Below are positions 15,604-37,784 of a stretch of 64,000 nt of DNA, in pieces (positions within the stretch are counted from its first letter, which is position 1; each line of letters begins with the position of its first letter). The notes under the pieces are model-generated. The model did not search any database. It saw only the letters and a list, made by a program, of their open reading frames with translations, and was not told the DNA's origin. Both the position numbers and the translations under genes were made by a program. Origin of the DNA: Candidatus Omnitrophota bacterium (GTDB taxonomy: Bacteria; Omnitrophota; Gorgyraeia; Zapsychrales; JAHFFX01); the NCBI GenBank assembly GCA_023247725.1, contig JAHFFW010000004.1, positions 19,921 to 83,920 of the forward strand, read 5' to 3'.

Positions 15604-15963
15604 ATGAATCATCGATGGTCGGGATGGGTCGATTTTATGGCAAGATGTTTTATCATCGCGTTCATGGTTTATTTGGCCTTGTCCGCTTTTTTTATTTCGG
15701 ATTTTAAAAAGCTCTCCCGGCTTTTGGATTCGGTGGAAAAAGAAATGCAGACCTTCACTCAGCAGAACAAAATCTATTCGACCTTTTTTACCACTGGAAA
15801 TCCAGAAATCCTTTATGTCATTGCCTTGCAAGATGAACAGAACGGCGATCTCGGTGGGGCCGCAAAGAAACTGTTGACGGCCATTCAAGTTTCGGATTTG
15901 AACAGCCAAAAATACCGCGCGAAGCTACAGGCACTTCTGGGAAAGTCCGGGCAGAATCCCTAA
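15604..15963 (+). CDS. Hypothetical small membrane protein
   Basis: One hydrophobic helix (FIIAFMVYLALSAFFI); no recognisable motif. Confidence 0.4.
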   Translation: MNHRWSGWVDFMARCFIIAFMVYLALSAFFISDFKKLSRLLDSVEKEMQTFTQQNKIYSTFFTTGNPEILYVIALQDEQNGDLGGAAKKLLTAIQVSDLNSQKYRAKLQALLGKSGQNP

Positions 15964-15974
15964 GTCTTCATTCC

Positions 15975-16316
15975 ATGTCATCCAGTTATGACGCGGTGAT
16001 TTCTTCTCTGGTCAAGGGTTTGCTTGATGATCAGGCGAATCCGGTCCTTGTTGAGCAAACCGCCCAACAGATGAGGAAAACTGTTCGACACATGCCGAGG
16101 CATCTGTCCCTGCCCATTATTTTTCTAACCCTTTGTTTTGATTGGGCGGGAATCTTGCGTGGAGGTCGAATCTTTCGATGTCAATCCGCTGTTTCTCAGC
16201 GGGCACAGATTGAAGATTGGAAAAAAAGTTTTTTATCGCCTTGTCGGGAGTTGATCCGTTTTCATGAAAAAATGAGCGGATTTATCTATTACTCCTATTC
16301 CCCGACGAAGAATTGA
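15975..16316 (+). CDS. Hypothetical protein
   Basis: ORF of 113 aa in an operon gap upstream of the GMC oxidoreductase; no motif recognised. Confidence 0.35.
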   Translation: MSSSYDAVISSLVKGLLDDQANPVLVEQTAQQMRKTVRHMPRHLSLPIIFLTLCFDWAGILRGGRIFRCQSAVSQRAQIEDWKKSFLSPCRELIRFHEKMSGFIYYSYSPTKN

Positions 16317-17870: not shown

Positions 17871-18908
17871 ATGGCAAGTCGAATGATTAGCTACGCGCAG
17901 GCCATCTCGGAAGCCACGGTTCAAGCCATGGAGGCTGATCCGAATGTTTTTGTGTTCGGCCTGGGGGTGGATGATTTTAAAGGAATTTTTAACACCACCA
18001 GAGAAGCCTTTGCGAAGTTTGGATCCTCCCGCGTCGTCGGAACTCCCGCAAGTGAAAATGCATTAACCGGCATCGCCATTGGAGCGGCCTTAAATGGGAA
18101 AAGGCCGATTCTGGTTCACGCCCGCAATGACTTTATGTTTCTGGCGCTCGACCAGATGCTCAATAATGCGGCCAAATGGAAATATTCTTATGCCGGACAA
18201 TCGAGCGTTCCGATCGTCGTGCGCGGGATCATCGGCAAGGGCTGGGGGCAGGGACCGACGCATTCCCAGAGCATTCAATCCATCTTTGCGCATTTTCCGG
18301 GGCTTTATGTCGCCATGCCGTCGGGCGCGTATGTGGCCAAAGGATTGCTGATAAAAAGCCTGCAGATCGATACGCCGGTTGTGCTCCTCGAGCACCGGGC
18401 TCTTTATGATCTCAAGGAAGCAGTTCCGGAAAAATCCTACACTTTGGATTTTGGCAAGGCACGGGTTGTTCGCCTTGGGAGAGACATCACGATCGTTGCG
18501 ACATCCTTCATGGTTCCGGAGGCGGTTAAGGCGGCTGACATTCTTCAATCCCAAGGGATTGATCCGGAGATCATCGATCCGGTCAGTCTTAATCCGCTGG
18601 ATGAAGAAACCATTCTCAACTCAGTTGCTAAAACCGGACGGTTGCTGTGCGCCGACACGAGCTGGCGGCGTTGCGGCTTCGCCGCGGAAGTCGCGGCCAT
18701 CGTCGCCGAGAAAAGTTTTGGTTCGCTCAAGGGACCGGTCAAAAGGATCACCCTTGCGGATTGCCCGTGTCCGGTTTCACAAAAACTAGAAGCAGAATTC
18801 TATCCCAGCTTCCAAACGATCGTGAATTCGGTTTATGCCATGTTGGACCGAAAAGAAAAATTTCAAATGGAAAGTCCCAAAGCCGACGTGTTTATTGGAC
18901 CCTATTGA
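17871..18908 (+). CDS. ThDP-dependent 2-oxoacid dehydrogenase E1 beta-subunit homolog (transketolase-like pyrimidine-binding and C-terminal domains)
   Basis: MEADPNVFVFGLGVDD, GIAIGAALNGKRP, typical PDH-E1-beta layout; about 345 aa. Confidence 0.85.
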   Translation: MASRMISYAQAISEATVQAMEADPNVFVFGLGVDDFKGIFNTTREAFAKFGSSRVVGTPASENALTGIAIGAALNGKRPILVHARNDFMFLALDQMLNNAAKWKYSYAGQSSVPIVVRGIIGKGWGQGPTHSQSIQSIFAHFPGLYVAMPSGAYVAKGLLIKSLQIDTPVVLLEHRALYDLKEAVPEKSYTLDFGKARVVRLGRDITIVATSFMVPEAVKAADILQSQGIDPEIIDPVSLNPLDEETILNSVAKTGRLLCADTSWRRCGFAAEVAAIVAEKSFGSLKGPVKRITLADCPCPVSQKLEAEFYPSFQTIVNSVYAMLDRKEKFQMESPKADVFIGPY

Positions 18909-20833: not shown

Positions 20834-21612
20834 TGGAATTGGGTATCCGCGGAAAAAAGGCTCTCGTGACCGGATCCGGGCGTGGCATCGGTCAGGCCAT
20901 TGCCTTGGCGCTGGCTCAGGAAGGCGCCAAGGTTGCGGTTGTGGCCCGCACAAAGAATGACATTGACCGGCTCATGCAACAGATGGCAGGAGGTAAGACC
21001 GGTCATTGTGGTGTGAGTTTGGATCTGACGGTCGAAGGTGCACCGAAAAAGTTGGTCCAGGTTTTGAAAACAAGGGATTTTCCTTCCTTTGATATCGTCG
21101 TACATAACCTGGGAAGTGCTCTCGACATTCGCGATCCATTCTGTTCGCTGGACCAATGGCGGCAGGTCATGCGGATCAATTTTGAAATCGCCGTGGAATT
21201 GAATCTTTTGTTAATCCCGGCCATGCAGAAAAAAAGGTGGGGACGGGTCGTCCATATTTCGTCCATTGCGGCCATGGAAAATCAGGGGCCGGTGACGTAT
21301 TGCGCGGCCAAGGCGGCCTTGACGGCTTACACGCGCAGTATGGGTGGTGTTGTTGCTCCCGACGGGGTTGTGATGTCCGCGGTTTTGCCCGGGGCTGTCT
21401 TTACGGAAAAAGGTTATTGGGATATCGCCTCCCGAACGAATCCGAACCATGTGAGAAAATTCCTCACTGAACGCCAGCGCATTGGGCGCTTTGGCGAGCC
21501 GCAGGAGATTGCCCATTTTGTCACCTTTTTGTGTTCGGACTTGGCCTCCTTCAACACCGGGGCGATTGTTCCCGTCGATGGGGGACAGGGGAGAGGTTAT
21601 TTTGGGCAATAG
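20830..21612 (+). CDS. SDR-family oxidoreductase
   Basis: ALVTGSGRGIGQAIA, YCAAK motifs. Confidence 0.8.
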   Translation: MMELGIRGKKALVTGSGRGIGQAIALALAQEGAKVAVVARTKNDIDRLMQQMAGGKTGHCGVSLDLTVEGAPKKLVQVLKTRDFPSFDIVVHNLGSALDIRDPFCSLDQWRQVMRINFEIAVELNLLLIPAMQKKRWGRVVHISSIAAMENQGPVTYCAAKAALTAYTRSMGGVVAPDGVVMSAVLPGAVFTEKGYWDIASRTNPNHVRKFLTERQRIGRFGEPQEIAHFVTFLCSDLASFNTGAIVPVDGGQGRGYFGQ

Positions 21613-22414
21613 GGTTGTTCCACCAAAAGAGGAATGGCAAATCCATAACGCGTATCGCCGCCGGATCGTGGACATGGTCTGCGAAGGAAAGGATGGCCAT
21701 ATCCCGAGCGCCTTCTCCATTATTGATATCATCGCCGTCCTTTATCAATATTATTTAAAATTTGATGCGAAGAATCCCGCCTGGGAAAAGCGGGATTATT
21801 TCATTTTGAGCAAGGGCCACGGGTGCCTGGCCCTTTACGTTGTCTTGAAAGAACATGGCTTTTTGACCGAAAACGATTTGAATGGATTCTGCCAGCCCGA
21901 CGGAATTTTGGGCGAACACCCCGATGCAACGAAGGTTCCGGGAGTGGAGCTCTCCACCGGTTCGCTGGGCCATGGCTTTTCCATGGCGGTGGGAATGGCC
22001 TTAGGTTTACGCATCCAAAATAGGAATAACCGGTTGTTTGTTTTGGTCGGCGACGGGGAATGTCACGAAGGAACCGTGTGGGAAGCGGCGAATGTCGCCA
22101 ATAATTTGCAGCTGGGAAATCTTTGTGTCGTCGTCGACTGGAATGGTTCGGCCGCACAACTCATGCCGCGCGATGATCTGCCGGCCAAATGGAAGGCCTT
22201 CGGCTGGGAAACCCACGTCATCGACGGCCATTCCGTGACCGAATTACGCCAGGCCTTGGACCGAATTGCTTTTAAAAGTGTGGGAACCCCGACCGTGATT
22301 GTCGCTAAGACGATCAAAGGAAAAGGCGTTCCCTTGTTAGAAGGTCACGGGACCTGGCATCACCGGATTCCTAAACCCGACGAGTACAAGATCATCATGG
22401 AGGCCTTGGCGTGA
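21602..22414 (+). CDS. Transketolase N-terminal (ThDP-binding) subunit of a split transketolase
   Basis: SKGHGCLALY, GSLGHGFSMAVGMA, VGDGECHEGTVWEA (GDG ThDP motif). No in-frame ATG near the 5' end. The TTG at 21602 preceded by GGGAGAGG is proposed; the track ORF starts at 21482 inside the SDR. Confidence 0.75.
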   Translation: MGNRVVPPKEEWQIHNAYRRRIVDMVCEGKDGHIPSAFSIIDIIAVLYQYYLKFDAKNPAWEKRDYFILSKGHGCLALYVVLKEHGFLTENDLNGFCQPDGILGEHPDATKVPGVELSTGSLGHGFSMAVGMALGLRIQNRNNRLFVLVGDGECHEGTVWEAANVANNLQLGNLCVVVDWNGSAAQLMPRDDLPAKWKAFGWETHVIDGHSVTELRQALDRIAFKSVGTPTVIVAKTIKGKGVPLLEGHGTWHHRIPKPDEYKIIMEALA

Positions 22415-23343
22415 GCGCCTCACCCATTCGTGATCAATTCGCCCAAACGATGCTGGAGGTCGGAGCCGCTGATTCGGATCTTGTGGTTTTGGTGGGTGAC
22501 ATCAGCCATTTCAAATTGCAGCCTTTTGCGCAAGCGTGCCCCGGGCGGTTTTATAACATCGGAATTTGTGAACCCACCATGGTCAGCATGGCCGCGGGCC
22601 TGGCCAAGGTCGGGCTTATTCCGGTCGCTCATACCATTGCCCCTTTTTTGTTGGAACGTTCCTTTGAGCAGATCAAACTGGATTTTGGGTATCACCAATT
22701 GGGAGGAAACCTCATCACCGTCGGAAGCGCCTTTGATTATGCGAATCTGGGATGCACCCATCACTGCTACGATGATTTTGCCTTACTGGGAAATCTTCCC
22801 GGAACCCAACTTTTTTATCCGGGAAGCGCTGTGGAATTTGATACCCTTTTTCGCCAAGTCTATCGCAGGGGCCGTCTCAATCTTTTTCGTCTTCCGGCCA
22901 TCGCGCATCAACAAACCTGGAACAACGATGACATTATCCCGGGAAAGGCCATCCTGGTTCAGGAGGGAAGTGATTTGACGATTATCACCACCGGCCCTCA
23001 TCTGACAACGGCCTTGGCTGCGCAAGATGAGTTGCGCCAAAAGGGATTTCATCCCGAAATCATTTATATTCACACCATCGTTCCTCTTGACCGGGATCAA
23101 TTGTTAGCCAGCGTGCAAAAGACGCGCCGCATTCTCGTCGTGGAGGAACACGTCTTTCATGGCGGGTTGTCCAGTCGGGTGTTGGAACTGGTCCGCGGCA
23201 TTCGGGATTTACAATTTTCAAGTTTATGTCTGTCCAACGAATTTGCCACCCACTATGGTTCGTACGAGGATCAATGCCGGCGCGTTGGTCTGACGAAGGA
23301 AGGGATCCTTCGTCATGTCTTGGAAAAATTTTCTAAAAACTAG
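22411..23343 (+). CDS. Transketolase C-terminal (pyrimidine-binding) subunit
   Basis: VGDISHFKL, GICEPTMVSMAAGLA motifs; the start overlaps the stop of the N-terminal subunit gene. Confidence 0.8.
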   Translation: MSASPIRDQFAQTMLEVGAADSDLVVLVGDISHFKLQPFAQACPGRFYNIGICEPTMVSMAAGLAKVGLIPVAHTIAPFLLERSFEQIKLDFGYHQLGGNLITVGSAFDYANLGCTHHCYDDFALLGNLPGTQLFYPGSAVEFDTLFRQVYRRGRLNLFRLPAIAHQQTWNNDDIIPGKAILVQEGSDLTIITTGPHLTTALAAQDELRQKGFHPEIIYIHTIVPLDRDQLLASVQKTRRILVVEEHVFHGGLSSRVLELVRGIRDLQFSSLCLSNEFATHYGSYEDQCRRVGLTKEGILRHVLEKFSKN

Positions 23344-23345
23344 CG

Positions 23346-24038
23346 ATGCCAAAACCAAAGACCAAAGAGGCGCAAAATCAATTCCAATTCGACCATTACC
23401 GTGGGAAGGGACCCGTCGGGCTTGGTCCCTGGAGCAGTCATAGCTGGCGGGACGATCCAAAGCACATTGGGTTTACGCTGGCCCGGTACAAGTTTTGCGC
23501 CAAAATGCTTCATGGCAAAAAAGAAGTTCTGGAAATCGGATGCGGCGATGCCTTTGGAACCCCCATCATTTTGGAATCCGCTCGAAGGATTCATGCCGTC
23601 GATTTTGAGCCGCTCATTGTGGCTGATGCCCGGGCCCGCTATCGAAAAGAAGGAATGGGCCCGATCACTTTTTCAGTTGAGGACCTCACGGTGCGGCCGG
23701 TTCCCGGAAGTTTTGATGCGGTCTATTCGCTCGATGTTCTGGAACACATTCCGCAAAGAAAAGAAAGTCGTTTTATGAACAATATCGTTGCGAGTTTGAA
23801 ACCTGATGCGGTTTGTATTCTAGGAACCCCGAATAAAGAGGCCCGACGATTTGCCAGCAAAGCGAGCCAAGAAGGCCACGTCAATTTAAAAACCGCCCAG
23901 ACCTTAAGAATGCTCCTGATGCGTTATTTTAAGAATGCCCTGATTTTTTCCATGAATGATGAAATCGTGCATACCGGTTATTACCCGATGGCTCATTATT
24001 TATTGGGAATGGGTGTTGGGTTAAGGGCGCTATCATGA
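23346..24038 (+). CDS. Class I SAM-dependent methyltransferase (paralog B of 18948..19625)
   Basis: VLEIGCGDAFG; shared DPKH, ARYKFCAK and C-terminal FSMNDE(I/V)VHTG...PMAHYL blocks. Confidence 0.7.
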   Translation: MPKPKTKEAQNQFQFDHYRGKGPVGLGPWSSHSWRDDPKHIGFTLARYKFCAKMLHGKKEVLEIGCGDAFGTPIILESARRIHAVDFEPLIVADARARYRKEGMGPITFSVEDLTVRPVPGSFDAVYSLDVLEHIPQRKESRFMNNIVASLKPDAVCILGTPNKEARRFASKASQEGHVNLKTAQTLRMLLMRYFKNALIFSMNDEIVHTGYYPMAHYLLGMGVGLRALS

Positions 24039-24790
24039 CGGCGATGGACAAAAGTCTAACGGTTGTTGTCCCTGCCTTTAACGAGGAACAAAATATCCTC
24101 TCGGCCATTGAAAATGTAAAGGGTGCTTTGGAAGGGATGGACTGGGAAATCATTGTGGTCAATGACGGAAGCTCGGATCAAACCGGTTCTTTGGCGGAAA
24201 AAAAGGCCAAGACCGATGCGCGGGTCCGGGTCGTCCATAATGAAAAAAATCTCGGCTACGGACACGCCTTTCAGCGGGGGGTGGGGTTGGCCACGCGTTC
24301 TTACATTGGAATATTCCCCGGCGATAACGATATGTCGGCAAAATCCCTGCTCGATTTGGTGGAAAACATCGGCGACGCGGACATGATCACGGCCTATATG
24401 TCCGATAGCAAGAGGCGACCTTGGGGCCGGCGATGTCTTTCGCGTTTATTTGTTTTCTTGTTGAGCGTGCTTTTCGGGTTGCCGCTCAAATATTACAACG
24501 GTCCGTTCATTTGCCGGCGGGGATTATTACAATCCTTAGCCATCAAATCGGAGGGGCTGACGGCTTTGGCGGAGTGCAAAATTCGCCTGCTGAAAATGGG
24601 ATGCACCTATAAAGAAATCCGTTTTGACCATACTGGCCGCCAGGCCGGGCGTTCCAGCGCGCTGCGATGGAAAAGCATCAAACAGACTTTAAGAAATGTT
24701 GCCATCCTTTTTAAAGACATTTATCTGACTCCTCGGGTTCTTCAACAAGAACCGGGCAGATCAACATGGAAGAACGCATTAAAACAATAA
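24035..24790 (+). CDS. GT2 polyprenyl-phosphate glycosyltransferase (DPM1/CsbB/GtrB-like)
   Basis: VVVPAFNEE, VVNDGSSD, GYGHAF and C-terminal amphipathic region; paralogous to 30804..31526. Confidence 0.8.
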   Translation: MTAMDKSLTVVVPAFNEEQNILSAIENVKGALEGMDWEIIVVNDGSSDQTGSLAEKKAKTDARVRVVHNEKNLGYGHAFQRGVGLATRSYIGIFPGDNDMSAKSLLDLVENIGDADMITAYMSDSKRRPWGRRCLSRLFVFLLSVLFGLPLKYYNGPFICRRGLLQSLAIKSEGLTALAECKIRLLKMGCTYKEIRFDHTGRQAGRSSALRWKSIKQTLRNVAILFKDIYLTPRVLQQEPGRSTWKNALKQ

Positions 24791-24802: not shown

Positions 24803-25318
24803 GTGTTCTATCTTCTTGCCAGTTGGTTTTTTTTTAGTTTGGCGGTTATCGCTCATATTGTTTGGTCGCGGAAAACAAGAAATCCATCCCGCTGGCTTGC
24901 GATGTTTTGCTTCATTGCTCTCATCATGCTTTGCGGGGATGTCGTCTTCGCTGGAATTTTTAGCCACGTTGTCGGAAACAATAGCCCTGGAGTAGCCACA
25001 TTGCCCCTCTACGGAACGGCGATTGTTTTTTATGTGATGTTGGTGCCCGTCTATACCTTGTTATATTTTGCCATGCTGACGGACAGTCCCTCGAAAATGA
25101 TTCTCAAGAAACTGCAAGCCGAGGGAACTTCGACCTATGAAGATTTATTGAAGCTCCTGACTTATGAAGAGGTTATTTCGCCGCGGTTGCAGGATCTTGA
25201 GGCCGGTGGCTTCATTCGTCGGGAAAACGATCAATATTGGCTTTTGCGTCGAGGGCACGGGGTGGCGAAATTGATTTCGCTTTGCCAAAAAATTTGCAAC
25301 CGGGGATTGGGAGGATAG
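24803..25318 (+). CDS. Small membrane protein with a C-terminal winged-helix-like domain (paralog 1)
   Basis: Two or three N-terminal hydrophobic helices, then YEDLLKLLTYEEVISPRLQDLEAGGFIRRENDQYWLLRRGHG resembling a wHTH recognition helix plus wing. Confidence 0.5.
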   Translation: MFYLLASWFFFSLAVIAHIVWSRKTRNPSRWLAMFCFIALIMLCGDVVFAGIFSHVVGNNSPGVATLPLYGTAIVFYVMLVPVYTLLYFAMLTDSPSKMILKKLQAEGTSTYEDLLKLLTYEEVISPRLQDLEAGGFIRRENDQYWLLRRGHGVAKLISLCQKICNRGLGG

Positions 25319-25330
25319 TCAAAAAAGAAC

Positions 25331-25897
25331 ATGTTCAGTATTTTTGATCAATTCATTTTGGTGATGGCAGGGCTTTCTTGCCTTTTCTTCATTGCGATTC
25401 AAGTCCTGGTGTTTCGTTTTATCGGTGCTGCCGGGGTCTTAAAGTGGCTTATGAACGTTTATTGGATCAGCACGATTTTGGGAGAAGGATTGACCATCTT
25501 TTTTGCCCGGAACGTATCGGCCTTCCATGGACGAGGACCGGCAGAGCTCGTGATCGTCTTTTTGGTATCCTTTATCCTTTACAGTTTAATGGCTTTTTTG
25601 TATGTCTTATTTATTTTGGGTCCTTACGAATCATCGGTCCGGTTACGGATTGTTCAGGAGATGGATCGCTATTATCCCAAAGGCTGCTCATTGGCGGCGC
25701 TTTTGCAGGCGTATAATACGGAAATTATTTTAAAACGCCGTTTAGGTCGCTTAATGGAGGCAGGAGATATATCCTACGACGGGCATTTATATCATCTTAA
25801 AAAGGAAATCAATCTCTTTTTGGTGACCGATCGAATGGTCGCCCAACTGAATGAATTCATCAATGGTCCTAAGGGCGATCAAAAGCAGTCCTTGTGA
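25331..25897 (+). CDS. Small membrane protein with a C-terminal winged-helix-like domain (paralog 2)
   Basis: Same architecture as 24803..25318 (TM helices, then LAALLQAYNTEIILKRRLGRLMEAGDISYDGHLYHLKK). Confidence 0.5.
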   Translation: MFSIFDQFILVMAGLSCLFFIAIQVLVFRFIGAAGVLKWLMNVYWISTILGEGLTIFFARNVSAFHGRGPAELVIVFLVSFILYSLMAFLYVLFILGPYESSVRLRIVQEMDRYYPKGCSLAALLQAYNTEIILKRRLGRLMEAGDISYDGHLYHLKKEINLFLVTDRMVAQLNEFINGPKGDQKQSL

Positions 25898-27974
25898 GAG
25901 AACCCCGAACCGGTCTTCGCTAATGCTTTTTATCGTTCCGGTTGCCTTCTGGCTCTTTTTGTTCCGTGATCTGGTCACGGCCAGGGCCTTTATTATCGGG
26001 GATTCCTTTAGCGTCTATTGTGTCGTGAAATTTTTTCTCGATTCCTTGCAGGAAGCGGTTTTTCCCTTGTGGGATCCTTTCTTAAATTTCGGTGAACCCT
26101 ATATACGGCATTTCGGTGAATTCAACCCCATCCTTATCCTCGTCGGAATTCTTTCGAAAACGGGGCTTTCCTTTTATCCGTCATTCTTGACGGCGTTTAT
26201 TATTTATTTTCTGTTGGGTGTGGCTGGCTTTTATTGGTTAGCCCTGCGGATTTTCCAAGATAAGGCGGCGGCGTATTTTTGTTTTGTGCTGCTTTTATTT
26301 TCTTCACTGGGCATGAACATCTTCAACCAAATCACCATTGTCTTGATCTATGTCCCCGTTGTCTGGTTTTTTTATTTTCTTTTGTGCTTTTACGAAAGCC
26401 CCGGGCATCGGGATTTTATGGGATGCGTGTTGACTTTATCAATGATTATCACGACGTATATTCCTTTTTATTTCTTGACGGTTTTCTTATTCATGTTTTT
26501 GGGCGTCGTTATTCTTTATCCTGCGGATGTGTCGGATTTTATTCGGAAATTAGCGGATTTTTTCCGCCCAAAAGCGATCTTTTGTTTTATCGGAGCGATC
26601 GTCCTGGCAATATCCCTAATGAGCGCCTGGTTCAATTACCGGTTGCTCAATTCGGATTTGAATGTTCCGGTTTGGCACTCGGCCACCCAGGCTTCCGCGG
26701 GCCTAGCCTTTGATTATGAACAACAAGCCACCAACGGAGCCATTCAAATTCCCTTGGGCAGGGGAATCTTTTCAGCTTCATTAATAGATATTCCTTACAG
26801 CAACGAGCGATTTTTTTATGTCCCGTTCTTTGTTTATCTGACGGTTTTGGCATTTCCCTGGACCCGCGCCAACCGGCGTATGGTGCTCTTCACGGGCGCA
26901 GGATTATTGCTTTTTTTTATCTGTTTAACCAAGGCTACGCCAGTTTATCCATTTTTCTTCAGGCATGTCTTTTATTTCAAATTATTCCGAAATTTGCATT
27001 TGTTCATTCCTTTTATCAGCTCCCTGCTGATTCTTTTGGCGGCCGAGCAATTGTCGGCTTTTTTTCAAATGGTTCAAGTCCATGGTAAAAAGTTTTGGGG
27101 TTATGGGTGGATTATTTTCTTTCATGCTGCCATTTTCGTTTTTTTATTGCGGCAGGAAGAAATTCTTTTAACGACTTTTTTGACGCTCCTGGTCAGTTTG
27201 GTATTTTTTTTGTTGGCGTGGGGTCGGCTTTTAACCCTCCGGAATGCCTGGACGCCCTGGGTGCTTTTACTGGCGATCATTTTGCAGCCCGTCGAGGTTC
27301 TCTGGGCTTTTCAAGACAAGGCCAAAAGTCATCACACGCCCATTATTGCCCGCGGTCTGCAGGCAGAAACCCGGCGCAGTGTTTTTTCCTATACGAGGCC
27401 GATGCCGAACGTCGTTGCAACTGACGTTGAGGATTACAATCTGTATTACAGTTATTTGGCCTTACGTGAAAATTCGCCGGTTTCCCCTTATCGTTATGGT
27501 TATCCGCCGCGTTGGTCGTATGAGCTTTCGCAAAATCTTGATCCTTTGACAGCCAAACTTCTTAGAAACCGTTTGCTCATTTTTAATTCTTCTCAAGAAG
27601 CAAGGATTTTGGGACTCGGGGCAGGCAGGTCCATCTGGGAGGGGTCGCAGGAAGTGCGCATCCTTCGCTTTGATCCAAACAAATTGATTCTCCAAACCCA
27701 TTTCTTAACGGAACAATTTTTTGTTCTGACGGATAGCTATCATCCGTTTTGGCGGGCCTGGATCAACGAAAAAGAGGTCCCCATCGAGCGTGCCCTGGGA
27801 GCCTTCCGAGGAATCAGGCTTCCTTGCGGACCCCAGGTGCTGCGATTGAAATATCAACCATGGGGAGCGGAAATTTTTCCCTGGATCACGATGATGATTC
27901 TGTGGTTAACCTTTGCGGATCTCCTGTATCTTTCTTGGAAAGGATTTCGTGGACGCAACCTTCGATCAGCATGA
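25851..27974 (+). CDS. YfhO-like GT-C-type polytopic membrane glycosyltransferase candidate
   Basis: More than 10 predicted TM helices. C-terminus SYHPFWRAWINEKEVPIERALGAFRGIRLPCGPQVLRLKYQPWG + TM matches the YfhO C-terminal signature and ORF 3058. The start is uncertain (25851, 25863 or 25923). Confidence 0.55.
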   Translation: MNSSMVLRAIKSSPCERTPNRSSLMLFIVPVAFWLFLFRDLVTARAFIIGDSFSVYCVVKFFLDSLQEAVFPLWDPFLNFGEPYIRHFGEFNPILILVGILSKTGLSFYPSFLTAFIIYFLLGVAGFYWLALRIFQDKAAAYFCFVLLLFSSLGMNIFNQITIVLIYVPVVWFFYFLLCFYESPGHRDFMGCVLTLSMIITTYIPFYFLTVFLFMFLGVVILYPADVSDFIRKLADFFRPKAIFCFIGAIVLAISLMSAWFNYRLLNSDLNVPVWHSATQASAGLAFDYEQQATNGAIQIPLGRGIFSASLIDIPYSNERFFYVPFFVYLTVLAFPWTRANRRMVLFTGAGLLLFFICLTKATPVYPFFFRHVFYFKLFRNLHLFIPFISSLLILLAAEQLSAFFQMVQVHGKKFWGYGWIIFFHAAIFVFLLRQEEILLTTFLTLLVSLVFFLLAWGRLLTLRNAWTPWVLLLAIILQPVEVLWAFQDKAKSHHTPIIARGLQAETRRSVFSYTRPMPNVVATDVEDYNLYYSYLALRENSPVSPYRYGYPPRWSYELSQNLDPLTAKLLRNRLLIFNSSQEARILGLGAGRSIWEGSQEVRILRFDPNKLILQTHFLTEQFFVLTDSYHPFWRAWINEKEVPIERALGAFRGIRLPCGPQVLRLKYQPWGAEIFPWITMMILWLTFADLLYLSWKGFRGRNLRSA

Positions 27975-29010
27975 AGCGAAGAAGCGCCCTTTCGCGCAGG
28001 CGGGTCCTATCAAGCTCCCCCGCCCGCCTGCCGGCGAGGCAGGGACCCTGCCGGCGGGGCTCCATGGCTCAGCAGCTTTTCTCAAAAGAATTTTCGGGTC
28101 TTCCGGTGCGCTTCTGGGTTTTACCTTGTTTTTGTTGTTCTTTGGGATCAATTATGAATTTTTGAGAATCGCCCGTCTAAATTATTTGTATGATCCGGAT
28201 AACATCTTGGGGAAATTTGCCCAGAATCAGATCTCATTAACGCCTGATCAATTCAAAGAGCGCTTGATGGAAAGCCGGGAGACGGTGCGATATCTTCCCT
28301 ACAAGGCTTTGGCTTACGGGAATCTCGGATTTTGCTATTTTTATGCCAAGGACGTCCCGCGGGCCATTCATGCTTATCGTCGGGCTATTGCCGAGGAACC
28401 GAATTGGTATCATTTATATTTCGACCTGGCGTTGATTTATTATGATCGCCGGGATTATATCCAGGCGGCAAAATTTCTCGAACAAAGTCTCTCGATCATC
28501 CCCAAGACCCGCGGGTTATTCCGCGAGGTCACGCTTTTTTTAAATCAGAATCAAAATCCTTTTTTTATCGAGATGGTGCAATATTTGAATCGCATCGATC
28601 AGGATGAACCCACCCTTTGGCTGATTCTGGGGGAAACTTATTATCATCAGAAACGAATACAGGAATTCCTCAAGATTTCCCAGGAGGGCTCCAGGCTTTT
28701 TCCGGGCCAGGCAAGATTCCGATTCCATCTGGCGATCGGTTATTTCCTTTTGGAAAAATGGGCGGATGCCAAGGTCTCCATTGATGCCGCCATTGCCCAG
28801 TACCCCGGGCAGTCGGAATTTTATTCCCTGCGCGGAATGATCCAGCAAAAATTGACCGGGGAAAATTCTATCGAAGATTTTCAGAAGGCCTTTATTCTTT
28901 CTGGCCAAGGAAAGCACAGCACGGCATTTTTTCCTACCCCACCCAGGTTGCATTATTTTCCGGCTGACTGGCTTTTTAAGGTTTACAGCCAGACCGGATT
29001 CATTAAGTAA
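27913..29010 (+). CDS. Membrane-anchored TPR-repeat protein
   Basis: One TM (ALLGFTLFLLFFGI) then TPR-like repeats (AYGNLGFCYFYAKDVPRAIHAYRRAIAEEP; LYFDLALIYYDRRDYIQAAKFLEQSL). The start is uncertain: the only in-frame ATG (27913) overlaps the upstream gene by 62 nt and precedes a GC-rich low-complexity stretch. Confidence 0.55.
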   Translation: MRISCIFLGKDFVDATFDQHEAKKRPFAQAGPIKLPRPPAGEAGTLPAGLHGSAAFLKRIFGSSGALLGFTLFLLFFGINYEFLRIARLNYLYDPDNILGKFAQNQISLTPDQFKERLMESRETVRYLPYKALAYGNLGFCYFYAKDVPRAIHAYRRAIAEEPNWYHLYFDLALIYYDRRDYIQAAKFLEQSLSIIPKTRGLFREVTLFLNQNQNPFFIEMVQYLNRIDQDEPTLWLILGETYYHQKRIQEFLKISQEGSRLFPGQARFRFHLAIGYFLLEKWADAKVSIDAAIAQYPGQSEFYSLRGMIQQKLTGENSIEDFQKAFILSGQGKHSTAFFPTPPRLHYFPADWLFKVYSQTGFIK

Positions 29011-30803: not shown

Positions 30804-31526
30804 ATGCCAACCCAAGATTTTTCCGTTTCCATCATTGTCCCCGCCTATAATGAGGAAGACAATATCGCTCAGGCCTTGCAGAATGTTCACAAAGCGATCC
30901 AGGGCCTGACGGATGATTATGAAATTTTGGTTTTTAGTGACGGTAGCCAAGATCGCACCGGCCGTATTGTTCAAGACCAGGCCAGGCTCCATCCTGGAAT
31001 CAAACTCATTGAATTCGAAGAAAATCAGGGATACGGGTATGTTTTTAAAGAAGGAATCCGTTTGGCCAGCAAAAAGTATTTTTTGATTTTCCATGGTGAC
31101 AACGACATGGCCTGGCAGTCGACCCGTGACCTTATTCTTAATGCCGGTCAGAGCGATCTGATTAGCTCTTATTTGACGGACATGAAAATCCGGTCTTTAT
31201 TCCGACGGATTATTTCCCAGACGTTTGTGATGGCGATGAATTGTCTTTTTGGGATGCAGCTGCGTTATTTCAATGGTCCCTTTATTTGTCGTTGTGAGCT
31301 ATTAAGTTCCCTGCCGCTGCGAAGTCCGGGTTTGACGGTCGTTGCCGAAACCAAGATTCGTTTGATCAAAAAAGGCCATAGCTACAAAGAGATTCCCTTC
31401 CAACATATCGGACGACGGGGCGGAAAATCAACGGCCCTGCGTTTTAAAAATGTGGTGACGGTGATATCGGTCGTCGCCGTTCTCTGGAAAGAGATTTATC
31501 TCACAAAGGATTCAGAGAAAAAATAA
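30804..31526 (+). CDS. GT2 polyprenyl-phosphate glycosyltransferase (DPM1/CsbB/GtrB-like), paralog of 24035
   Basis: SIIVPAYNEE, VFSDGSQD, GYGYVF; colinear similarity with 24035..24790 down to the C-terminal HIGRRGGKSTALRFKN block. Confidence 0.8.
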   Translation: MPTQDFSVSIIVPAYNEEDNIAQALQNVHKAIQGLTDDYEILVFSDGSQDRTGRIVQDQARLHPGIKLIEFEENQGYGYVFKEGIRLASKKYFLIFHGDNDMAWQSTRDLILNAGQSDLISSYLTDMKIRSLFRRIISQTFVMAMNCLFGMQLRYFNGPFICRCELLSSLPLRSPGLTVVAETKIRLIKKGHSYKEIPFQHIGRRGGKSTALRFKNVVTVISVVAVLWKEIYLTKDSEKK

Positions 31527-33652
31527 TGCCAAAGAAATTACCAGAGTTATTGTCCGCACTGGAAGGAAAAAATATTTTAAGCCTTTCCGGCCTGGCGGTT
31601 CTTTGGGGAATCCAGCTCCTGGCCTTTTTGAGCTGGGGGCTCAGCCTTTTCCCCGTTGATCAAAAGAGAGTTTGGGCCGATTTTTTTACCGTCGTTCACC
31701 CCGAGGTTCAGCCAGAGCGAGAAATCCTGTTATTCCGTTTCTTTGTTTTGGGAACAGTGGCTATTTTTGCCTTCTTGTTATTTCGTCGATTGAAAAACTT
31801 TCCGGAGAGCCTCCCGAGCCTGACCATGCGGTTAATGGCAGAAGGCTTGATAACGATTAGCCTGGTGAGCTCGGGGCTGGGATGGATTCTCGCTCCCGAG
31901 GCCAATGAACCTAAGGTGATGTTCTATCTGATGGCAGCTTTGGCGATGGCCGCCAAATTTCTTCCACACGCGAGTGAAAGTGTTATCCGGCAGATTGAAT
32001 TGGCGGGGGCTCGGTTCAAGGACGCGTTTAAGCGCTGGTACGGCGGCGATGTCCTATTTTTGCTTTGGATCTTTGCTGCCATTGCGATCGTCGATGTTGA
32101 ATCGGTGCTTGCCCTCAGCTATGTGCAGGACAAATTTCATCATTGGGACGGCTTTGTCATGGCGCCAGGCTGGGCTTATTTATCGGGATTGGTTCTCAAC
32201 CACGATTGTATCACCCAGTATGGGATTTTTTGTGTGGCGGTCCTCAGCCGAATGGCACAATGGCTCGGCGGGTTCAGTTATCAGCATGTCCTTGCCGTTA
32301 TCGCTGCCTCGACCATCATTTATTACATGGTCAGTTACTTATTCTTAAGATCTTGGTTAAAAGATTCGCTGTTAGCGGCCAGTGGCATTGTCTTAGGGTT
32401 GACTTGGCAGATGTTCCATTCCGGACTCGAAAGTGTGATTTGGCGTTTTCCTTCGGCAACCGTTATTCGCTATTTTTTTGATGTATTTATTTTTGTCCTT
32501 ATCCTGGCTCATATTCGTCGAGGAAAATTCATCTTTCTTTACTTCGCCGCCATCCTTGCCGGGGTATCGTTGGCCCATGTGACCGATACCGGAATATATG
32601 TGACGTTGACCTTATGGGCTTATTTGATTTTAGAAACGGTGCGGGAACTAAGCGGGAAGAATTTTTTTAAGTCCAGCTTGTACCGGATGATCGCCTGTGC
32701 CATCTTGCCTTTGATGGTGGCCGCCGCGATCCTTGGGTGGATGGAAGGCCCCTGGTTTTTCTCGGCGGAGTTTTGGAACAATTCAATTGAGAATATCCGA
32801 CTGTTCTTGCGTGGTTTTGGCAATTTGCCGATCTACACCAATTTGAAAGAAGGTTTTCCGGGACTTTTTCTCCTGGGATTGGCGATTCCCTTAATTTATG
32901 TTCTGAATCTCATGGTCATCGGTTCTTTATATATTTCTGGAAAACTCGGGAAAGAGCATGTGCTGGCGATCTTGCTGAGCATTTATGGGCTGGGCTTGTA
33001 TCATTACTATGTTTGCCGGTCTGCGATCATGAGTTATCTGGTCGTGAGTCTGCCTTTGGTCTTCATCCTGTGTTACTGGATGCAAGCCCTCTTGGAAAAT
33101 CTGGACCGCTTTCCCAGAAGAATCATGACAAGCGTTGTCTTGTTTCTTCTGTTAGTTCAGTTATTCTCTAATCCCATCTTTCAAAAGTATCCCAATATCT
33201 TTCATTCTAAAGCGCAGCTGTGGGCTGAGGAAAAGGCCCAGTTTGAAAAGGAATTTCATTTCCAATCGGACGAGGCCCTCATCAGAGAAATGACGAGGCC
33301 CGAAGAGCGCGTGGCTTTGATCAGCAGTTTTGAAACCCAGATCTTGATTGAGGCCCAGCGTCGCCCATATTTTTATTATTTTCCTCTCATCAATTCTGAA
33401 CGCATGGAGGTCAATAGTTTTCAGGGAACTTACCTTTGGGAAAAGAGCCGCTTGGATAAGACCTTAATGCAATTGCAGCAGCATTCTCCCCAATATATTT
33501 TTGTCGAAAAAAAACTTTTCGAAGGAAAACTTCCCCGGCCCTATTATGCTTATCATGAGACGCTGACGATCCTCATGCAATTTTTGTATGAGCATTACGA
33601 ACCAGTCAAGTCAGGGAAATACCTATTGGCACTCAAACGCAAACCCCTCTGA
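31526..33652 (+). CDS. Large polytopic membrane protein, GT-C-like glycosyltransferase candidate of unclear family
   Basis: About 13 hydrophobic helices over roughly 530 aa, then a soluble C-terminal domain; the start overlaps the GT2 stop (ATAATG). Confidence 0.45.
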   Translation: MPKKLPELLSALEGKNILSLSGLAVLWGIQLLAFLSWGLSLFPVDQKRVWADFFTVVHPEVQPEREILLFRFFVLGTVAIFAFLLFRRLKNFPESLPSLTMRLMAEGLITISLVSSGLGWILAPEANEPKVMFYLMAALAMAAKFLPHASESVIRQIELAGARFKDAFKRWYGGDVLFLLWIFAAIAIVDVESVLALSYVQDKFHHWDGFVMAPGWAYLSGLVLNHDCITQYGIFCVAVLSRMAQWLGGFSYQHVLAVIAASTIIYYMVSYLFLRSWLKDSLLAASGIVLGLTWQMFHSGLESVIWRFPSATVIRYFFDVFIFVLILAHIRRGKFIFLYFAAILAGVSLAHVTDTGIYVTLTLWAYLILETVRELSGKNFFKSSLYRMIACAILPLMVAAAILGWMEGPWFFSAEFWNNSIENIRLFLRGFGNLPIYTNLKEGFPGLFLLGLAIPLIYVLNLMVIGSLYISGKLGKEHVLAILLSIYGLGLYHYYVCRSAIMSYLVVSLPLVFILCYWMQALLENLDRFPRRIMTSVVLFLLLVQLFSNPIFQKYPNIFHSKAQLWAEEKAQFEKEFHFQSDEALIREMTRPEERVALISSFETQILIEAQRRPYFYYFPLINSERMEVNSFQGTYLWEKSRLDKTLMQLQQHSPQYIFVEKKLFEGKLPRPYYAYHETLTILMQFLYEHYEPVKSGKYLLALKRKPL

Positions 33653-33674: not shown

Positions 33675-34388
33675 ATGGAAAAATATCTGGTCGGGATCTG
33701 TGCCTTTAATGAAGGAGCTAAAATTAAGAGGGTCATGACAAAGTTCGCTGATTATGGCCTTTACGAGGTGTTAGTCATTGATGATGGTTCGACGGATGGA
33801 TCTCTGAGTGTAGTTTTATCTCATGAGGCGGTCACGCTGATTCGTAATGAACAGAATCGCGGCGCCGGCTATGGGACAAGACAGATCGTGAATTATGCGA
33901 GACAGAATCATTATACAGCCGTCATTTTTGTCTCTGGAAATGATAAAGACTCTCCCGCTGATGTCGCTAAACTTAAAGACGCGATTGAGGCCGGATACGA
34001 TTTTGTGCAAGGCTCCCGATATTTACCGGGCGGCGGTCATGGAGGAATGCCATTGTATCGAATGCTCACAACTCAATATATCCATCCCTGGCTATTTTCT
34101 CTAATCACCGGAAAAAGGATTACGGATAGCACCAATGGATTTCGGGCGGTTCGGGTAAACATGTTCAATGATCGAAGAATCAACCTGAATCAGCCCTGGC
34201 TTGATCATTATGAACTCGAACCTTATTTGTTTTATAAGGCGATTACCTGCGGTTATAAAGTCAAAGAAGTGCCGGTTACAAAGATTTATCCGAAAAAAGC
34301 AGAGGGTTACACTAAGATGCGCCCATTCATCGACTGGTGGAGTATTTTAAGACCGCTGGTGTATTTAGGATTAAGGATCAAAAAATAA
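33675..34388 (+). CDS. GT2 glycosyltransferase (polyprenyl-phosphate sugar synthase-like)
   Basis: VLVIDDGSTDGS, NRGAGYG motifs. The track ORF begins at 33588, but the ATG at 33675 (MEKYLVGICAF) lies after the upstream stop. Confidence 0.75.
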   Translation: MEKYLVGICAFNEGAKIKRVMTKFADYGLYEVLVIDDGSTDGSLSVVLSHEAVTLIRNEQNRGAGYGTRQIVNYARQNHYTAVIFVSGNDKDSPADVAKLKDAIEAGYDFVQGSRYLPGGGHGGMPLYRMLTTQYIHPWLFSLITGKRITDSTNGFRAVRVNMFNDRRINLNQPWLDHYELEPYLFYKAITCGYKVKEVPVTKIYPKKAEGYTKMRPFIDWWSILRPLVYLGLRIKK

Positions 34389-35989
34389 TGGACTTTAAAA
34401 ATCGGTTGCCATGGCTTCATATCCTGGCGGGCCTGGCCGGGTTCATCATTGTCTTAGGAATCATTTTGCGCTTTTTTCGCATCACCGACGCGGATTTTAC
34501 TTTCTATGACGAAGGGCTTTACCTTAATCTCAGCCGACCGTTTTCGGATTTTGTGGCCAAGCACTTGCCCCTTAAAGGAGCGGATTTCTGGCAAGCGGTA
34601 TACACCTTACTGTTGATTTCTTTACCCCAAGGCAAGGCGCTGTGGCTTTTTCTTGTGGATTCGAGGGTATTTTGGGGGTTGTGGGAAGGGTGGTCGGTTC
34701 CTCGTGTCATTGCGGCGGTGTCAGGCACTTTAACCCTTGGTCTGGAATTTATTTTTGTCCAACGGTTTTTTCAGAATCGGCTCATCGCTTTTTTAAGTGT
34801 GGTTCTCTTGAGTATTTTACCCAGCCATGTGTTTTATTCCCGCCTGGCCTTGCAGGAAACTTTGAGTACACTTTTTTTCCTCGCCGGTTTCTATTTTTAT
34901 TTGTTTCCGGCAAAATTGAATTCAAGGACGTTCTTATCGGCGGTCTTTTTCATCGGCGCCTATTTTACCAATTACCGCCTCATCATTATTCCTTTACTGG
35001 TTCTTTGGGCCGAAATCTGGATGTCATTATCCCTAGGCCAGAGACCCAATGTTCGTAAATATATCTGGCATGTACTGACTTTCCTCAGCCTGATGTTCAG
35101 TATTGGCGCCATTGATGAAGGGCAGAATACCGTCGTCACCTTTTCTTGGATGTTCCATCAGGCGCAGCTGGGCCAACACCAATTCGACTGGCTTAACTTT
35201 TTTTCCTTTCCCTATTATTTGTTTCGCTTGGAGCATCCATTCTTTGGATTGTTATTTTTCAGCGGGGCATATTTACTCTCTCGAAGGAGTTTCTATGATC
35301 TTTTGCCTTTGGGGTTAGTGCTTTTGCAGATGGCCATCTTTTCTTTCGCGGCGGATAAGGCCGCTCGCTATGTGTGTGTCGTGACTCCTTTTTTGGCGGC
35401 GTCCGTGGCGGTGACAATTGCCCGGTTATGGGACGATATCAAAAATCCCCGTCGGCAAGTTGTCCTGGGGATTCTGGTCTTCTTTCTTGTTGCGGGCATG
35501 ACACTCAAATCCGTGAGATTGGCTACGGCAGTTTCTGACTATCGCCCGTCGATGCAATACTTGGTCGGTCTTGATCCTGCGGTTAAAGTCATTTCCACAC
35601 AGCCTTTCGTCCAAAACCTATATGTTGAACCCAGAGAGCGCGTTCAAGAGTGTCCACTGGAATTCATCGGTCTGGTTGCCTTATACATGCAAGGATACCG
35701 ATACTTAGTTTTAGATCCCCAAGCCTATATCACTTATACCGCTGACCGAAATAAATTCACGCCCGTTCTTAAGGATTACCTTGGATTCATTTTAACCAAC
35801 GCCAAACCTGTTAAGGAATTCCCACATTTTAACCAGGATTTATTGGAGAGATTTGTTTTCGAACACAATGAAAATTTGCAGCGTTCGCTGGCTTTTTTGC
35901 GGATGAATGATGCCGGGATGGGGAGACTACGGATTTATGACATCAACGCGTGCTTGCTCGCCATTCAGCAACGTTTAGGATCGCGATGA
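34388..35989 (+). CDS. GT-C glycosyltransferase, PMT/ArnT-like (GT39/GT83-like)
   Basis: FTFYDEGLYLN first-loop DE motif characteristic of PMT/ArnT-family GT-C enzymes; more than 10 TM helices. ATG 34388 overlaps the upstream TAA (TAATG). Confidence 0.6.
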   Translation: MDFKNRLPWLHILAGLAGFIIVLGIILRFFRITDADFTFYDEGLYLNLSRPFSDFVAKHLPLKGADFWQAVYTLLLISLPQGKALWLFLVDSRVFWGLWEGWSVPRVIAAVSGTLTLGLEFIFVQRFFQNRLIAFLSVVLLSILPSHVFYSRLALQETLSTLFFLAGFYFYLFPAKLNSRTFLSAVFFIGAYFTNYRLIIIPLLVLWAEIWMSLSLGQRPNVRKYIWHVLTFLSLMFSIGAIDEGQNTVVTFSWMFHQAQLGQHQFDWLNFFSFPYYLFRLEHPFFGLLFFSGAYLLSRRSFYDLLPLGLVLLQMAIFSFAADKAARYVCVVTPFLAASVAVTIARLWDDIKNPRRQVVLGILVFFLVAGMTLKSVRLATAVSDYRPSMQYLVGLDPAVKVISTQPFVQNLYVEPRERVQECPLEFIGLVALYMQGYRYLVLDPQAYITYTADRNKFTPVLKDYLGFILTNAKPVKEFPHFNQDLLERFVFEHNENLQRSLAFLRMNDAGMGRLRIYDINACLLAIQQRLGSR

Positions 35990-37014: not shown

Positions 37015-37784
37015 AAGAAGGAATGACCAAATCTCAAAGAACCAAAATGGAATTAAAAGAAATTTTCAATCATTGGGCAAAAAGCGTTCATCCGGATTAT
37101 GCCCATCAGCAGTGGCTTTTGAGCAAATGGGAAGTATTTGAGGGAATTGAATGGTCTGCGGCAAAGATTGATTTGATGGTCAAAACAATTGCCCAAGGAT
37201 TGAGTTTAAAAATTTCGGATTGTCTGATCGATTTGGGATGCGGGGCTGGCTGGATTTTACAGGCCCTTTTGTCGCGCTGTGCAAAGGGAGTCGGCTTGGA
37301 TATTTCCTGGGAAATGCTCAAAATGGCGACTCGCAAAGCCCGCGTGAATTATCTTTGCGGCGAGATCGGCCAATTGCCTTTGCGATCTGAAAGTTTCGAT
37401 TGTGCCTTGGTTTACTATGTATTTTTGAATTTTCGGGACTATCGTTATGTCGAACAATCGCTCTTGGAGATCTTTCGCATTCTAAAACCTGGTGGTCGGG
37501 CCTTAATTGGACAACTGCCTGACCAAAATTGTTCGGCTGATTACGAGCTGGCAAAGGCCGACCATTTGCAATTTTGTCAACGGCATTATCTGCTGGGAAA
37601 GAATAATCGGGACCTTTATTTACCCCCGTTGCGATTGTTCGACCGGAATCGCTTAAAAGATTTTTTGGGAAAATACAACATGGACCATCGATTTCTGCCC
37701 TCCTTTAATCCTTTCTTCCGAGAAGGAAAGCCTGAAGTGATCGATTGGCGATTCGACCTGATTCTGGAAAAAAATCTAAAATGA
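37011..37784 (+). CDS. Class I SAM-dependent methyltransferase
   Basis: LIDLGCGAGW motif I, VGLDIS motif II, LKPGGRALIG post-II region. Confidence 0.8.
   Translation: MKEGMTKSQRTKMELKEIFNHWAKSVHPDYAHQQWLLSKWEVFEGIEWSAAKIDLMVKTIAQGLSLKISDCLIDLGCGAGWILQALLSRCAKGVGLDISWEMLKMATRKARVNYLCGEIGQLPLRSESFDCALVYYVFLNFRDYRYVEQSLLEIFRILKPGGRALIGQLPDQNCSADYELAKADHLQFCQRHYLLGKNNRDLYLPPLRLFDRNRLKDFLGKYNMDHRFLPSFNPFFREGKPEVIDWRFDLILEKNLK

Follow-up and report, generated by a model that had tools for sequence, protein, structure and literature searches.

A stretch of 64,000 nucleotides from a Candidatus Omnitrophota bacterium (GenBank assembly GCA_023247725.1, contig JAHFFW010000004.1, positions 19,921 to 83,920 of the forward strand), here called the window, was found to carry at 24803-25897 two tandem genes for small membrane proteins, P1 and P2, of 171 and 188 amino acids (aa). 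They lie between a family 2 glycosyltransferase (GT2) and a YfhO-like protein, as a preliminary description of this DNA had reported. P1 and P2 represent two apparently undescribed protein families, designated A and B, in which three transmembrane (TM) helices are followed by a domain predicted to be a cytoplasmic winged helix. The pair recurs in independent loci beside glycosyltransferase genes. The window system is regarded as a probable three- or four-component lipid-linked glycosylation module with a previously undescribed small membrane pair. By analogy with characterized systems it is tentatively proposed that P1 and P2 act as a heterodimeric membrane dock and activator for polyprenyl-phosphate GT2 synthases that are devoid of TM helices.

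The two genes

The two open reading frames (ORFs) are as follows.

24803..25318, + strand: P1, small membrane protein of family A, 171 aa; ORF with GTG start and GGAG 5 nt upstream
25331..25897, + strand: P2, small membrane protein of family B, 188 aa; ORF with ATG start

Both ORFs are intact and lie in the same reading frame, separated by a TAG codon and four further codons. This layout could be taken for a single gene that a sequencing frameshift has interrupted or that is read through at the TAG, the former possibility having been raised in the preliminary description; the shared frame and the short gap speak for it, although a common frame is a one-in-three coincidence. P1 and P2 were joined into a single query (plain letters, with X replacing the stop codon) and searched exhaustively using phmmer. 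At E ≤ 1e-3 the search returned 610 cluster representatives for families A and B together, by which both genes are taken to be real. Each of the 150 best homologues (104-209 aa) matched one half of the fused query only, and no P1-P2 fusion was present among them. The A/B junctions of other loci consist of TAA stops, of ATGA or TAATG overlaps in other frames, or of a spacer with its own ribosome-binding site, and the identical two-gene arrangement was assembled independently from several samples. The single-gene explanation was rejected as extremely improbable on the absence of fused homologues and the different frames and overlaps elsewhere. P1 and P2 are real, separate genes.

Homologues and paralogy

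The homologues split cleanly into a P1-like family A (about 170 aa) and a P2-like family B (about 180 aa), which contributed 50 and 101 homologues, respectively, to the best 150 hits. No similarity between P1 and P2 was detected by pairwise BLASTP, while comparison of the two family alignments with hhalign gave a probability of 98.5% and an E value of 2.2e-15 over 146 columns, covering both the membrane and the soluble parts. P1 and P2 are accordingly distant paralogs derived from an ancient duplication that is visible at the profile level only. The paralogy claimed in the preliminary description was borne out in this form.

Neither P1 nor P2 matched any Pfam or NCBIfam model, word-indexed homologue searches returned almost nothing, and blastn of the P1-P2 region against plasmids gave no match. 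A motif-limited locus scan based on a 20-sequence alignment recovered 6 genome loci and 4 metagenome loci only. The few source names available read "hypothetical protein", Candidatus Omnitrophota, and the named locus records were metagenome-assembled genomes from Omnitrophota or "uncultured Planctomycetales". Judged from these searches, families A and B would be two undescribed families.

Predicted structure and membrane topology

AlphaFold2 models were built from the family alignments. The P1 model had a mean predicted local distance difference test score (pLDDT) of 91.3 and a predicted template modelling score (pTM) of 0.76; the values for P2 were 91.6 and 0.78. The domains were delimited as follows.

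24806..25078, + strand: P1 membrane domain, three helices (residues 2-24, 28-53 and 67-92); AlphaFold2
25088..25243, + strand: P1 predicted winged-helix domain (helices 96-107, 112-118 and 121-134, hairpin 138-147), with an S95-P96 cap at its start; AlphaFold2
25247..25315, + strand: P1 C-terminal helix (149-164) and tail ending in Gly-Gly; AlphaFold2 and conservation
25340..25633, + strand: P2 membrane domain, three helices (4-28, 33-61 and 70-101); AlphaFold2 and topology
25637..25864, + strand: P2 predicted winged-helix domain (helices 103-112, 121-127 and 130-143, strands 147-149 and 154-156) and C-terminal helix 162-178; AlphaFold2

The two proteins are built alike. Two TM helices connected by a very short loop form a hairpin; an outer loop leads to the long third helix, after which come three short helices and a beta-hairpin in winged-helix topology, and a further helix. 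The preliminary description had allowed two or three TM helices; the models contain three in each protein. It had also noted winged-helix-like C-termini, and the segments quoted there correspond to helix 2, helix 3 and strand 1 of the predicted winged helix. The structure prediction that it proposed as a check returned the winged helix-turn-helix (wHTH) topology in both proteins at a pLDDT of 91-92, the helix 1-helix 2-helix 3-hairpin order itself being modelled at a pLDDT above 90.

Profile searches pointed in the same direction at lower strength. The family A profile matched the HTH regions of Lrp/AsnC, MarR and HxlR structures in the PDB at E values of 0.013-0.5, and the family A consensus gave matches to HVO_A0261_N (E 1.5e-5, 25.2 bits against a cut-off of 35), HTH_45 (E 1.3e-4, 22.4 bits against 25.5) and HTH_24 (E 8.5e-4, 19.3 bits against 21.9). 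The profile searches suggested in the preliminary description were thus consistent in what they matched, and every match lay below its family threshold: none to the MarR, Lrp, ArsR or PadR regulator families exceeded it, and the best PDB match was Lrp-type at E 0.013. Foldseek against the PDB gave no significant match for either model (E ≥ 0.27) and found no solved structure resembling the whole of P1 or P2; the non-significant top rows for both models were mostly winged-helix proteins. The soluble domain of P1 and P2 is therefore described as a predicted winged helix, for which profile support is consistent but weak.

Membrane orientation was assessed by positive-inside analysis. Loop 1 contained on average 3.0 Lys+Arg residues in family A and 1.9 in family B, as against about 0-0.7 in the N-terminus and loop 2. 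Since the charges obey the positive-inside rule, both proteins are predicted to have their N-terminus outside and their winged helix in the cytoplasm, in parallel topology.

Conserved residues and charge

In the membrane domain of family A the conserved positions are H18 and W21-C22-R23 at the cytoplasmic end of helix 1 (the P1 of the window carries Ser at position 22 in place of the family Cys), P68-L69, and a tyrosine ladder (Y77, Y84 and Y88) on helix 3. These are followed by the invariant S95-P96 helix cap and by R128 and L132 in helix 3 of the winged helix. Family B conserves D6, F28-R29, Y84 and Y91 in its membrane part, a junction of G97-P-Y-E100-S-S102, and four arginines (R104, R106, R137 and R140) at 96% or more, of which R137 is invariant. 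R128 of family A and R137 of family B fall in the same hhalign column, invariant in both families, and a conserved R-L-x-x-L-x-x-x-G closes helix 3 of the winged helix. Because the membrane helices are so strongly conserved, it is argued that they are probably more than an anchor.

The last two residues of family A are Gly-Gly (G170 conserved at 98%, G171 at 100%), preceded by a conserved Y-Q-x-x-x-G-R; in the window they are encoded at 25310-25315. The tail was modelled at low confidence, and the family A copy of one related locus (L004) ends in Ser-Gly. The Gly-Gly could be nothing more than the GGAGG Shine-Dalgarno sequence of the gene downstream. This was rejected as the sole cause: the codons differ among loci (GGA, GGC, GGT and GGG), and the motif is kept in L007, where no B gene follows. 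The variation in Gly codons indicates a constraint on the protein.

A membrane-anchored winged helix might also belong to a membrane-tethered heterodimeric transcription factor that senses the status of the lipid carrier or the envelope and controls the glycan operon, regulation being one of three roles put forward in the preliminary description. The helix-helix-helix-hairpin topology, the motif at the end of helix 3 and the weak similarity to the Lrp/AsnC, MarR, ArsR and HxlR families would suit such a factor; a heterodimer would provide two DNA-reading heads, the basic soluble domain of family B (mean net charge +7) has arginines in its helices 1 and 3 that are invariant, and the family B gene of locus L023 is the first in its operon. 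Several features argue the other way. The domain lies C-terminal to a three-helix membrane anchor, and no wHTH match reaches any family threshold. The "recognition" helix of family A begins with acidic or hydrophobic residues (consensus TDEELILPRL), and the family A domain carries a net charge of only about +3. The genes stand mid-operon and are translationally coupled to enzymes, and conserved membrane residues together with an invariant terminal Gly-Gly are atypical of tethered regulators. A regulatory role was considered very unlikely.

Gene order in related loci

Sixteen independent loci were compared, comprising the window and L004-L012, L014, L017, L018 and L021-L023; those with the arrangement of the window are mostly in Omnitrophota-type genomes. 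A stands immediately upstream of B, abutting or overlapping it, in 14 of the 16, the exceptions being L007, where the two are 3.7 kb apart, and L023, where B has no adjacent A. A short GT2 lies directly upstream of A in seven loci (the window, L008, L010, L011, L012, L014 and L017), and in L005 and L006 the GT2 is one methyltransferase gene away from the pair. All nine of these GT2s are 237-274 aa long, too short for TM helices. No adjacent GT2 was present in L018, L009, L021, L022 or L023.

On the other side of the pair, 12 loci encode a large polytopic membrane protein that resembles the GT-C glycosyltransferases and starts only a few bases from B. At least three families are represented among these proteins. 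Homologues of the YfhO-like protein encoded at 25923..27974 of the window stand directly after B in L005-L008, L010-L012 and L017, and homologues of a second window protein (708 aa, 31526..33652) directly after A-B in L018 and L009. In L014 the protein after the pair (7556-9415) is of another GT-C type, with weak PMT_2 and Alg9-like GT22 matches, so the A-B pair is not tied to one GT-C family. The position after the GT-C-like gene, held in the window by a tetratricopeptide-repeat (TPR) gene, is also filled in L012/L015, L017 and L007. In the more distant L021-L023 the neighbours, within short contigs, are other sugar-metabolism or unrelated genes. The preliminary description had asked whether homologues always co-occur with a GT2 plus YfhO-like pair; a GT2 stands at or near the A-B pair in 9 of the 16 loci and a GT-C-like gene after B in 12 of the 16.

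Two further proteins were noted beside the pair. L018 encodes at 359-5992 a giant protein of 1877 aa with several hydrophobic stretches and no Pfam match, and a protein near the pair in L021 (4193-4879) is similar to it at the N-terminus.

The tight linkage to GT-C-like genes suggests that A/B could be an accessory subunit of the GT-C enzymes, stabilising them or delivering the lipid-linked donor within the membrane. The 12 loci with at least three families of membrane protein a few bases past B fit this, as does L018, the minimal module, which consists of A-B and a GT-C-like membrane protein only. A specific subunit is harder to reconcile with three different GT-C families as neighbours, and the most conserved soluble domain is cytoplasmic, in contrast to the periplasmic catalytic loops of GT-C enzymes. 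Moreover, the distant L021, L022 and L023 contain no GT-C gene within the DNA available, and the second and third GT-C modules of the window (GT-C2 and GT-C3) have no pair of their own. This role was rated distinctly improbable.

The glycan cluster of the window

The region from about 250 to 37800 forms one co-directional glycan cluster of about 37 kb, in which the following genes surround or follow the A-B pair.

24035..24790, + strand: GT2 glycosyltransferase, 251 aa, with no TM helices, putatively of the polyprenyl-phosphate sugar synthase type; Pfam PF00535, E 6e-24
25923..27974, + strand: polytopic membrane protein, YfhO-like, candidate GT-C, 683-707 aa; Pfam YfhO C-terminal match at E 4e-5, below threshold
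27949..29010, + strand: TPR-repeat protein after the GT-C-like gene; Pfam TPR families
30804..33652, + strand: second module, GT2 with no TM helices (240 aa) and 708-aa membrane protein (31526..33652); Pfam and gene calls
33675..35989, + strand: third module, GT2 with no TM helices (237 aa) and 533-aa membrane protein (34388-35989); gene calls

The best solved relative of the GT2 at 24035..24790 was the Pyrococcus furiosus dolichol-phosphate-mannose synthase 5mlz (residues 7-227 aligned to 24-248). The window protein ends where the alignment ends, and the 374-residue 5mlz chain continues beyond. Among solved chains it also aligned with the catalytic domains of ArnC and GtrB, and partial NCBIfam matches were obtained to PpgS, dolichyl-phosphate hexose transferase, AglJ and ArnC. 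On the strength of these alignments and partial matches it is assigned, by similarity, to the polyprenyl-phosphate sugar synthase type, as a form lacking membrane helices of its own. No PDB relative was found for the membrane protein at 25923..27974.

The cluster contains four large GT-C-like proteins (3058-5823, 25923-27974, 31526-33652 and 34388-35989), three GT2s with no TM helices (starting at 24035, 30804 and 33675), many sugar-tailoring enzymes and one A-B pair only. The second and third modules have no small membrane proteins of their own and both lie within 10 kb after the pair; the single pair may serve all three GT2 modules. The membrane protein at 3058-5823 (921 aa) is a paralogue of that at 25923..27974, and its C-terminus passes the Pfam YfhO threshold; its gene follows that of a methyltransferase and is not flanked by a GT2 gene. 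No gene of the GtrA, Wzx/MATE or ArnE/F type was recognised among the cluster genes scanned. Small ORFs at 15604-16316 were considered as flippase candidates and rejected, each having at most one hydrophobic stretch in translation.

The tailoring genes at 250-23343 include two B12-binding radical SAM enzymes (7483-8991 and 9037-11076), split transketolase-like pairs (17871-18908 and 21482-23343), an E1 dehydrogenase component, an FAD amine oxidase, a GMC oxidoreductase, an asparagine-synthase-like amidotransferase, and several methyltransferases and short-chain dehydrogenases/reductases. This unusual set suggests that the sugar is heavily modified, possibly branched-chain or C-methylated. The genes past the cluster, at 37745-43728, seem to be of common housekeeping or signalling kinds: an ApbE flavin transferase, a glycogen-phosphorylase-like gene, thyA-folA and a response regulator containing an EAL domain.

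Comparison with known glycosylation systems

Systems of the four-component kind, such as streptococcal GacI/GacJ/GacK/GacL and lactococcal WpsA/WpsB, encode a three-helix DUF2304 protein of about 113 aa right after a GT2 that has no TM helices. GacJ-type proteins form a detergent-stable complex with their GT2; with the partner present the Km for undecaprenyl phosphate falls from 18.7 to 1.1 µM and Vmax rises by orders of magnitude. Rv3632 of Mycobacterium tuberculosis has the same role for PpgS. An AlphaFold model of WpsA/WpsB shows a two-helix hairpin and a long last helix that reaches the cytoplasm and contacts the GT2, which is the layout of P1 and P2 ahead of the winged helix. The mechanism of such activators is unresolved.

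The likeness of families A and B to DUF2304 comprises three TM helices, a short basic loop between the first two, a cytoplasmic C-terminal extension after the third, and a gene directly downstream of a GT2 of about 230-250 aa with no TM helices in a cluster that also holds a GT-C enzyme; the gene order of the A-B loci parallels gacI-gacJ, wpsA-wpsB and ppgS-Rv3632. There are also differences. GacJ-type proteins are single, of about 113-127 aa, and end in a simple helix, whereas P1 and P2 are paralogs of 171 and 188 aa that each carry a predicted winged helix and an extra helix; GacJ-type systems also possess a separate flippase of the Wzx or GtrA type, and none was found in the window cluster.

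At the sequence level, the family A consensus aligned with the DUF2304 model PF10066 almost end to end (residues 6-105 to positions 2-98 of 106) at E 0.057 and 14.1 bits, against a gathering threshold of 25.5. Matches to PF10066 were seen for 6 of 50 family A members and for none of the listed family B members. Comparison by hhalign with two DUF2304 sequences, namely Rv3632 (partly rebuilt from a peptide-mapping paper) and a homologue from locus L020, gave P 0.095, and hmmsearch against the same partial Rv3632 and L020 sequences was not significant. The two families were not filed under DUF2304, for which the homology signal is suggestive and sub-threshold.

The L020 sequence was the one homologue returned by tblastn with the Rv3632 query, which found none in plasmids. 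This true DUF2304 homologue has the same order of GT2 and then small protein. The record (MT835786.1, "Bacteriophage sp.", from human faeces) carries at 1684-2785 a PpgS-like GT2 followed by the DUF2304 gene, with ABC-transporter-like genes; it is of high GC content and, in spite of its phage label, has the look of cell-wall glycan DNA from actinobacteria and not of phage DNA.

A second parallel is eukaryotic. DPM1 is soluble and is accompanied by DPM2 and DPM3, so that there too two small membrane proteins stand alongside a GT2 with no TM helices, and the closest solved relative of the window GT2 is a dolichol-phosphate-mannose (DPM) synthase. No sequence or profile similarity was found between P1, P2 or their families and DPM2 or DPM3. 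The latter have two helices each, are not paralogs of each other and contain no winged helix.

GtrA/GtcA proteins (PF04138), the putative flippases of three-component Gtr and CsbB/YfhO systems, resemble the pair in being small membrane proteins encoded between or beside a polyprenyl-phosphate GT2 and a GT-C enzyme, and the preliminary description had placed P1 and P2 in the slot expected for them. GtrA, of about 120-140 aa, spans the membrane with four helices and lacks a soluble domain, in contrast to the three TM helices and cytoplasmic domain of about 80-90 aa in P1 and P2. PF04138 matched neither P1 nor P2 at E ≤ 1 and was not listed at E ≤ 10 for 142 members (50 of family A and 92 of family B). 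Membership of GtrA/GtcA was rejected on these grounds, and with it the placement in a known flippase family that the preliminary description had considered. ArnE and ArnF offer another likeness, as two small tandem paralogous membrane proteins working with a polyprenyl-phosphate GT2 (ArnC, among the solved relatives of the window GT2) and a GT-C (ArnT). They are four-helix EamA/SMR-like proteins with no cytoplasmic domains; P1 and P2 have three helices each and gave no Pfam or NCBIfam match to this type.

The pair could nonetheless be a new six-helix heterodimeric flippase for polyprenyl-phosphate sugars, replacing one of the GtrA/GtcA, ArnE/ArnF or Wzx type. It fills the slot between synthase and GT-C, the cluster genes scanned over 37 kb include no recognised flippase, tandem small paralogs recall ArnE/ArnF, and polar residues are conserved within helices and at helix ends. 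The pair also keeps its GT-C-like gene where no GT2 is adjacent (L018 and L009), and a single pair might be enough for three or four GT-C modules, much as GtrA is interchangeable among Gtr systems. On the opposite side, no flippase family in Pfam or NCBIfam was matched, and an architecture of three helices in parallel topology with an 80-aa cytoplasmic domain per subunit is unlike that of four-helix GtrA or SMR-type proteins. A flippase has no obvious need for two conserved cytoplasmic winged helices, and its gene can be encoded elsewhere, as is that of the lactococcal flippase CflA. For GtrA-type flippases, flipping itself has yet to be demonstrated directly. The flippase reading was held to be possible, though doubtful.

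The slot argument in the preliminary description was borne out in part. Independent loci show the pair again between GT2 and GT-C, so the slot is conserved; it is not reserved for a flippase, since GacJ/WpsB-type activators also sit there. The flippase-only view is too narrow because a three-helix protein after a GT2 with no TM helices is the GT2 activator or anchor in those systems, and the window GT2 likewise has none.

Proposed function

The reading tentatively preferred, on the analogies above, is that P1 and P2 form a heterodimeric membrane dock and activator for GT2 synthases of the polyprenyl-phosphate type that have no TM helices. Each subunit would contribute three helices bundled in the inner membrane and a cytoplasmic winged helix. 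Through the winged helices the soluble catalytic domain of the GT2 would be docked at the surface of the membrane, and the conserved His, Arg and Tyr residues at the cytoplasmic helix ends may help to bind undecaprenyl phosphate and present it to the GT2. The lipid-linked sugar would then be used across the membrane by the adjacent GT-C-type enzymes. The role of A/B would be that of GacJ, WpsB and Rv3632 for GacI, WpsA and PpgS, and of DPM2/DPM3 for DPM1, carried out by a duplicated protein whose cytoplasmic extension had become a winged helix.

Several lines of evidence point to this dock and activator. The window GT2, related to DPM synthase, ArnC, GtrB and PpgS, ends where its alignment with the DPM synthase ends, and the nine GT2s next to A-B pairs are too short for TM helices. 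The gene order GT2, A, B, with stop and start codons that abut or overlap, matches that of gacI-gacJ, wpsA-wpsB and ppgS-Rv3632. The long third helix runs into the cytoplasmic domain, as reported for the contact of GacJ/WpsB with their GT2. One A-B pair is present in a cluster with three GT2s that have no TM helices. The DUF2304 signals, weak and sub-threshold, are collinear from end to end. In addition, a cytoplasmic partner is to be expected because the large and strongly conserved domain is cytoplasmic, while the active sites of GT-C enzymes face the periplasm.

Other observations weigh against it. In five of the loci (L018, L009, L021, L022 and L023) the pair has no GT2 beside it; that of L018, accompanied by a GT-C-like protein only, fits a flippase or GT-C partner better, and linkage to the GT-C-like gene is at least as tight as that to the GT2. 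The homology to DUF2304 is not significant by either hhalign or Pfam. GacI and WpsA reach the membrane with no partner protein, so an anchor is not strictly needed. Finally, nothing in the proposal explains the need for a winged helix, for two paralogs or for the invariant C-terminal Gly-Gly.

The roles of dock and activator, flippase and GT-C partner are not mutually exclusive. A/B might be a coupling device in which a six-helix unit translocates or escorts polyprenyl-phosphate sugars and the winged helices recruit the synthase, which would physically link the steps of synthesis, flipping and transfer to several GT-Cs; the winged helices might even bind DNA and tie the status of the lipid carrier to transcription. 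This composite was judged unlikely. Among the flippase, regulator and adaptor roles of the preliminary description, that of adaptor is the best supported, with the GT2 no less than the GT-C as the partner. Its observation was confirmed and extended, its first interpretation was supported in part, and the function given here is one that we infer. As a three- or four-component glycosylation system, the window agrees with the known ones in its GT2, judged by sequence relationship, and has no dedicated flippase recognised among the cluster genes scanned, unless A/B is itself that flippase.

Implications

Periplasmic decoration of glycans by way of polyprenyl-phosphate sugars is widespread, and its small membrane components are the least understood. 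In the slot between synthase and GT-C, families A and B carry on their three-helix membrane anchor a protein-interaction or ligand-binding fold that is usually tied to DNA binding. Should they dock or activate GT2s, bacteria would have in them a counterpart of the DPM1/2/3 arrangement, and the winged helix would, if it does the docking, be a tractable soluble handle on synthase recruitment; should they instead flip lipid-linked sugars, they would constitute a new flippase class. Family models for A and B are merited, so that the glycan clusters of Omnitrophota-type genomes lose two central "hypothetical proteins".

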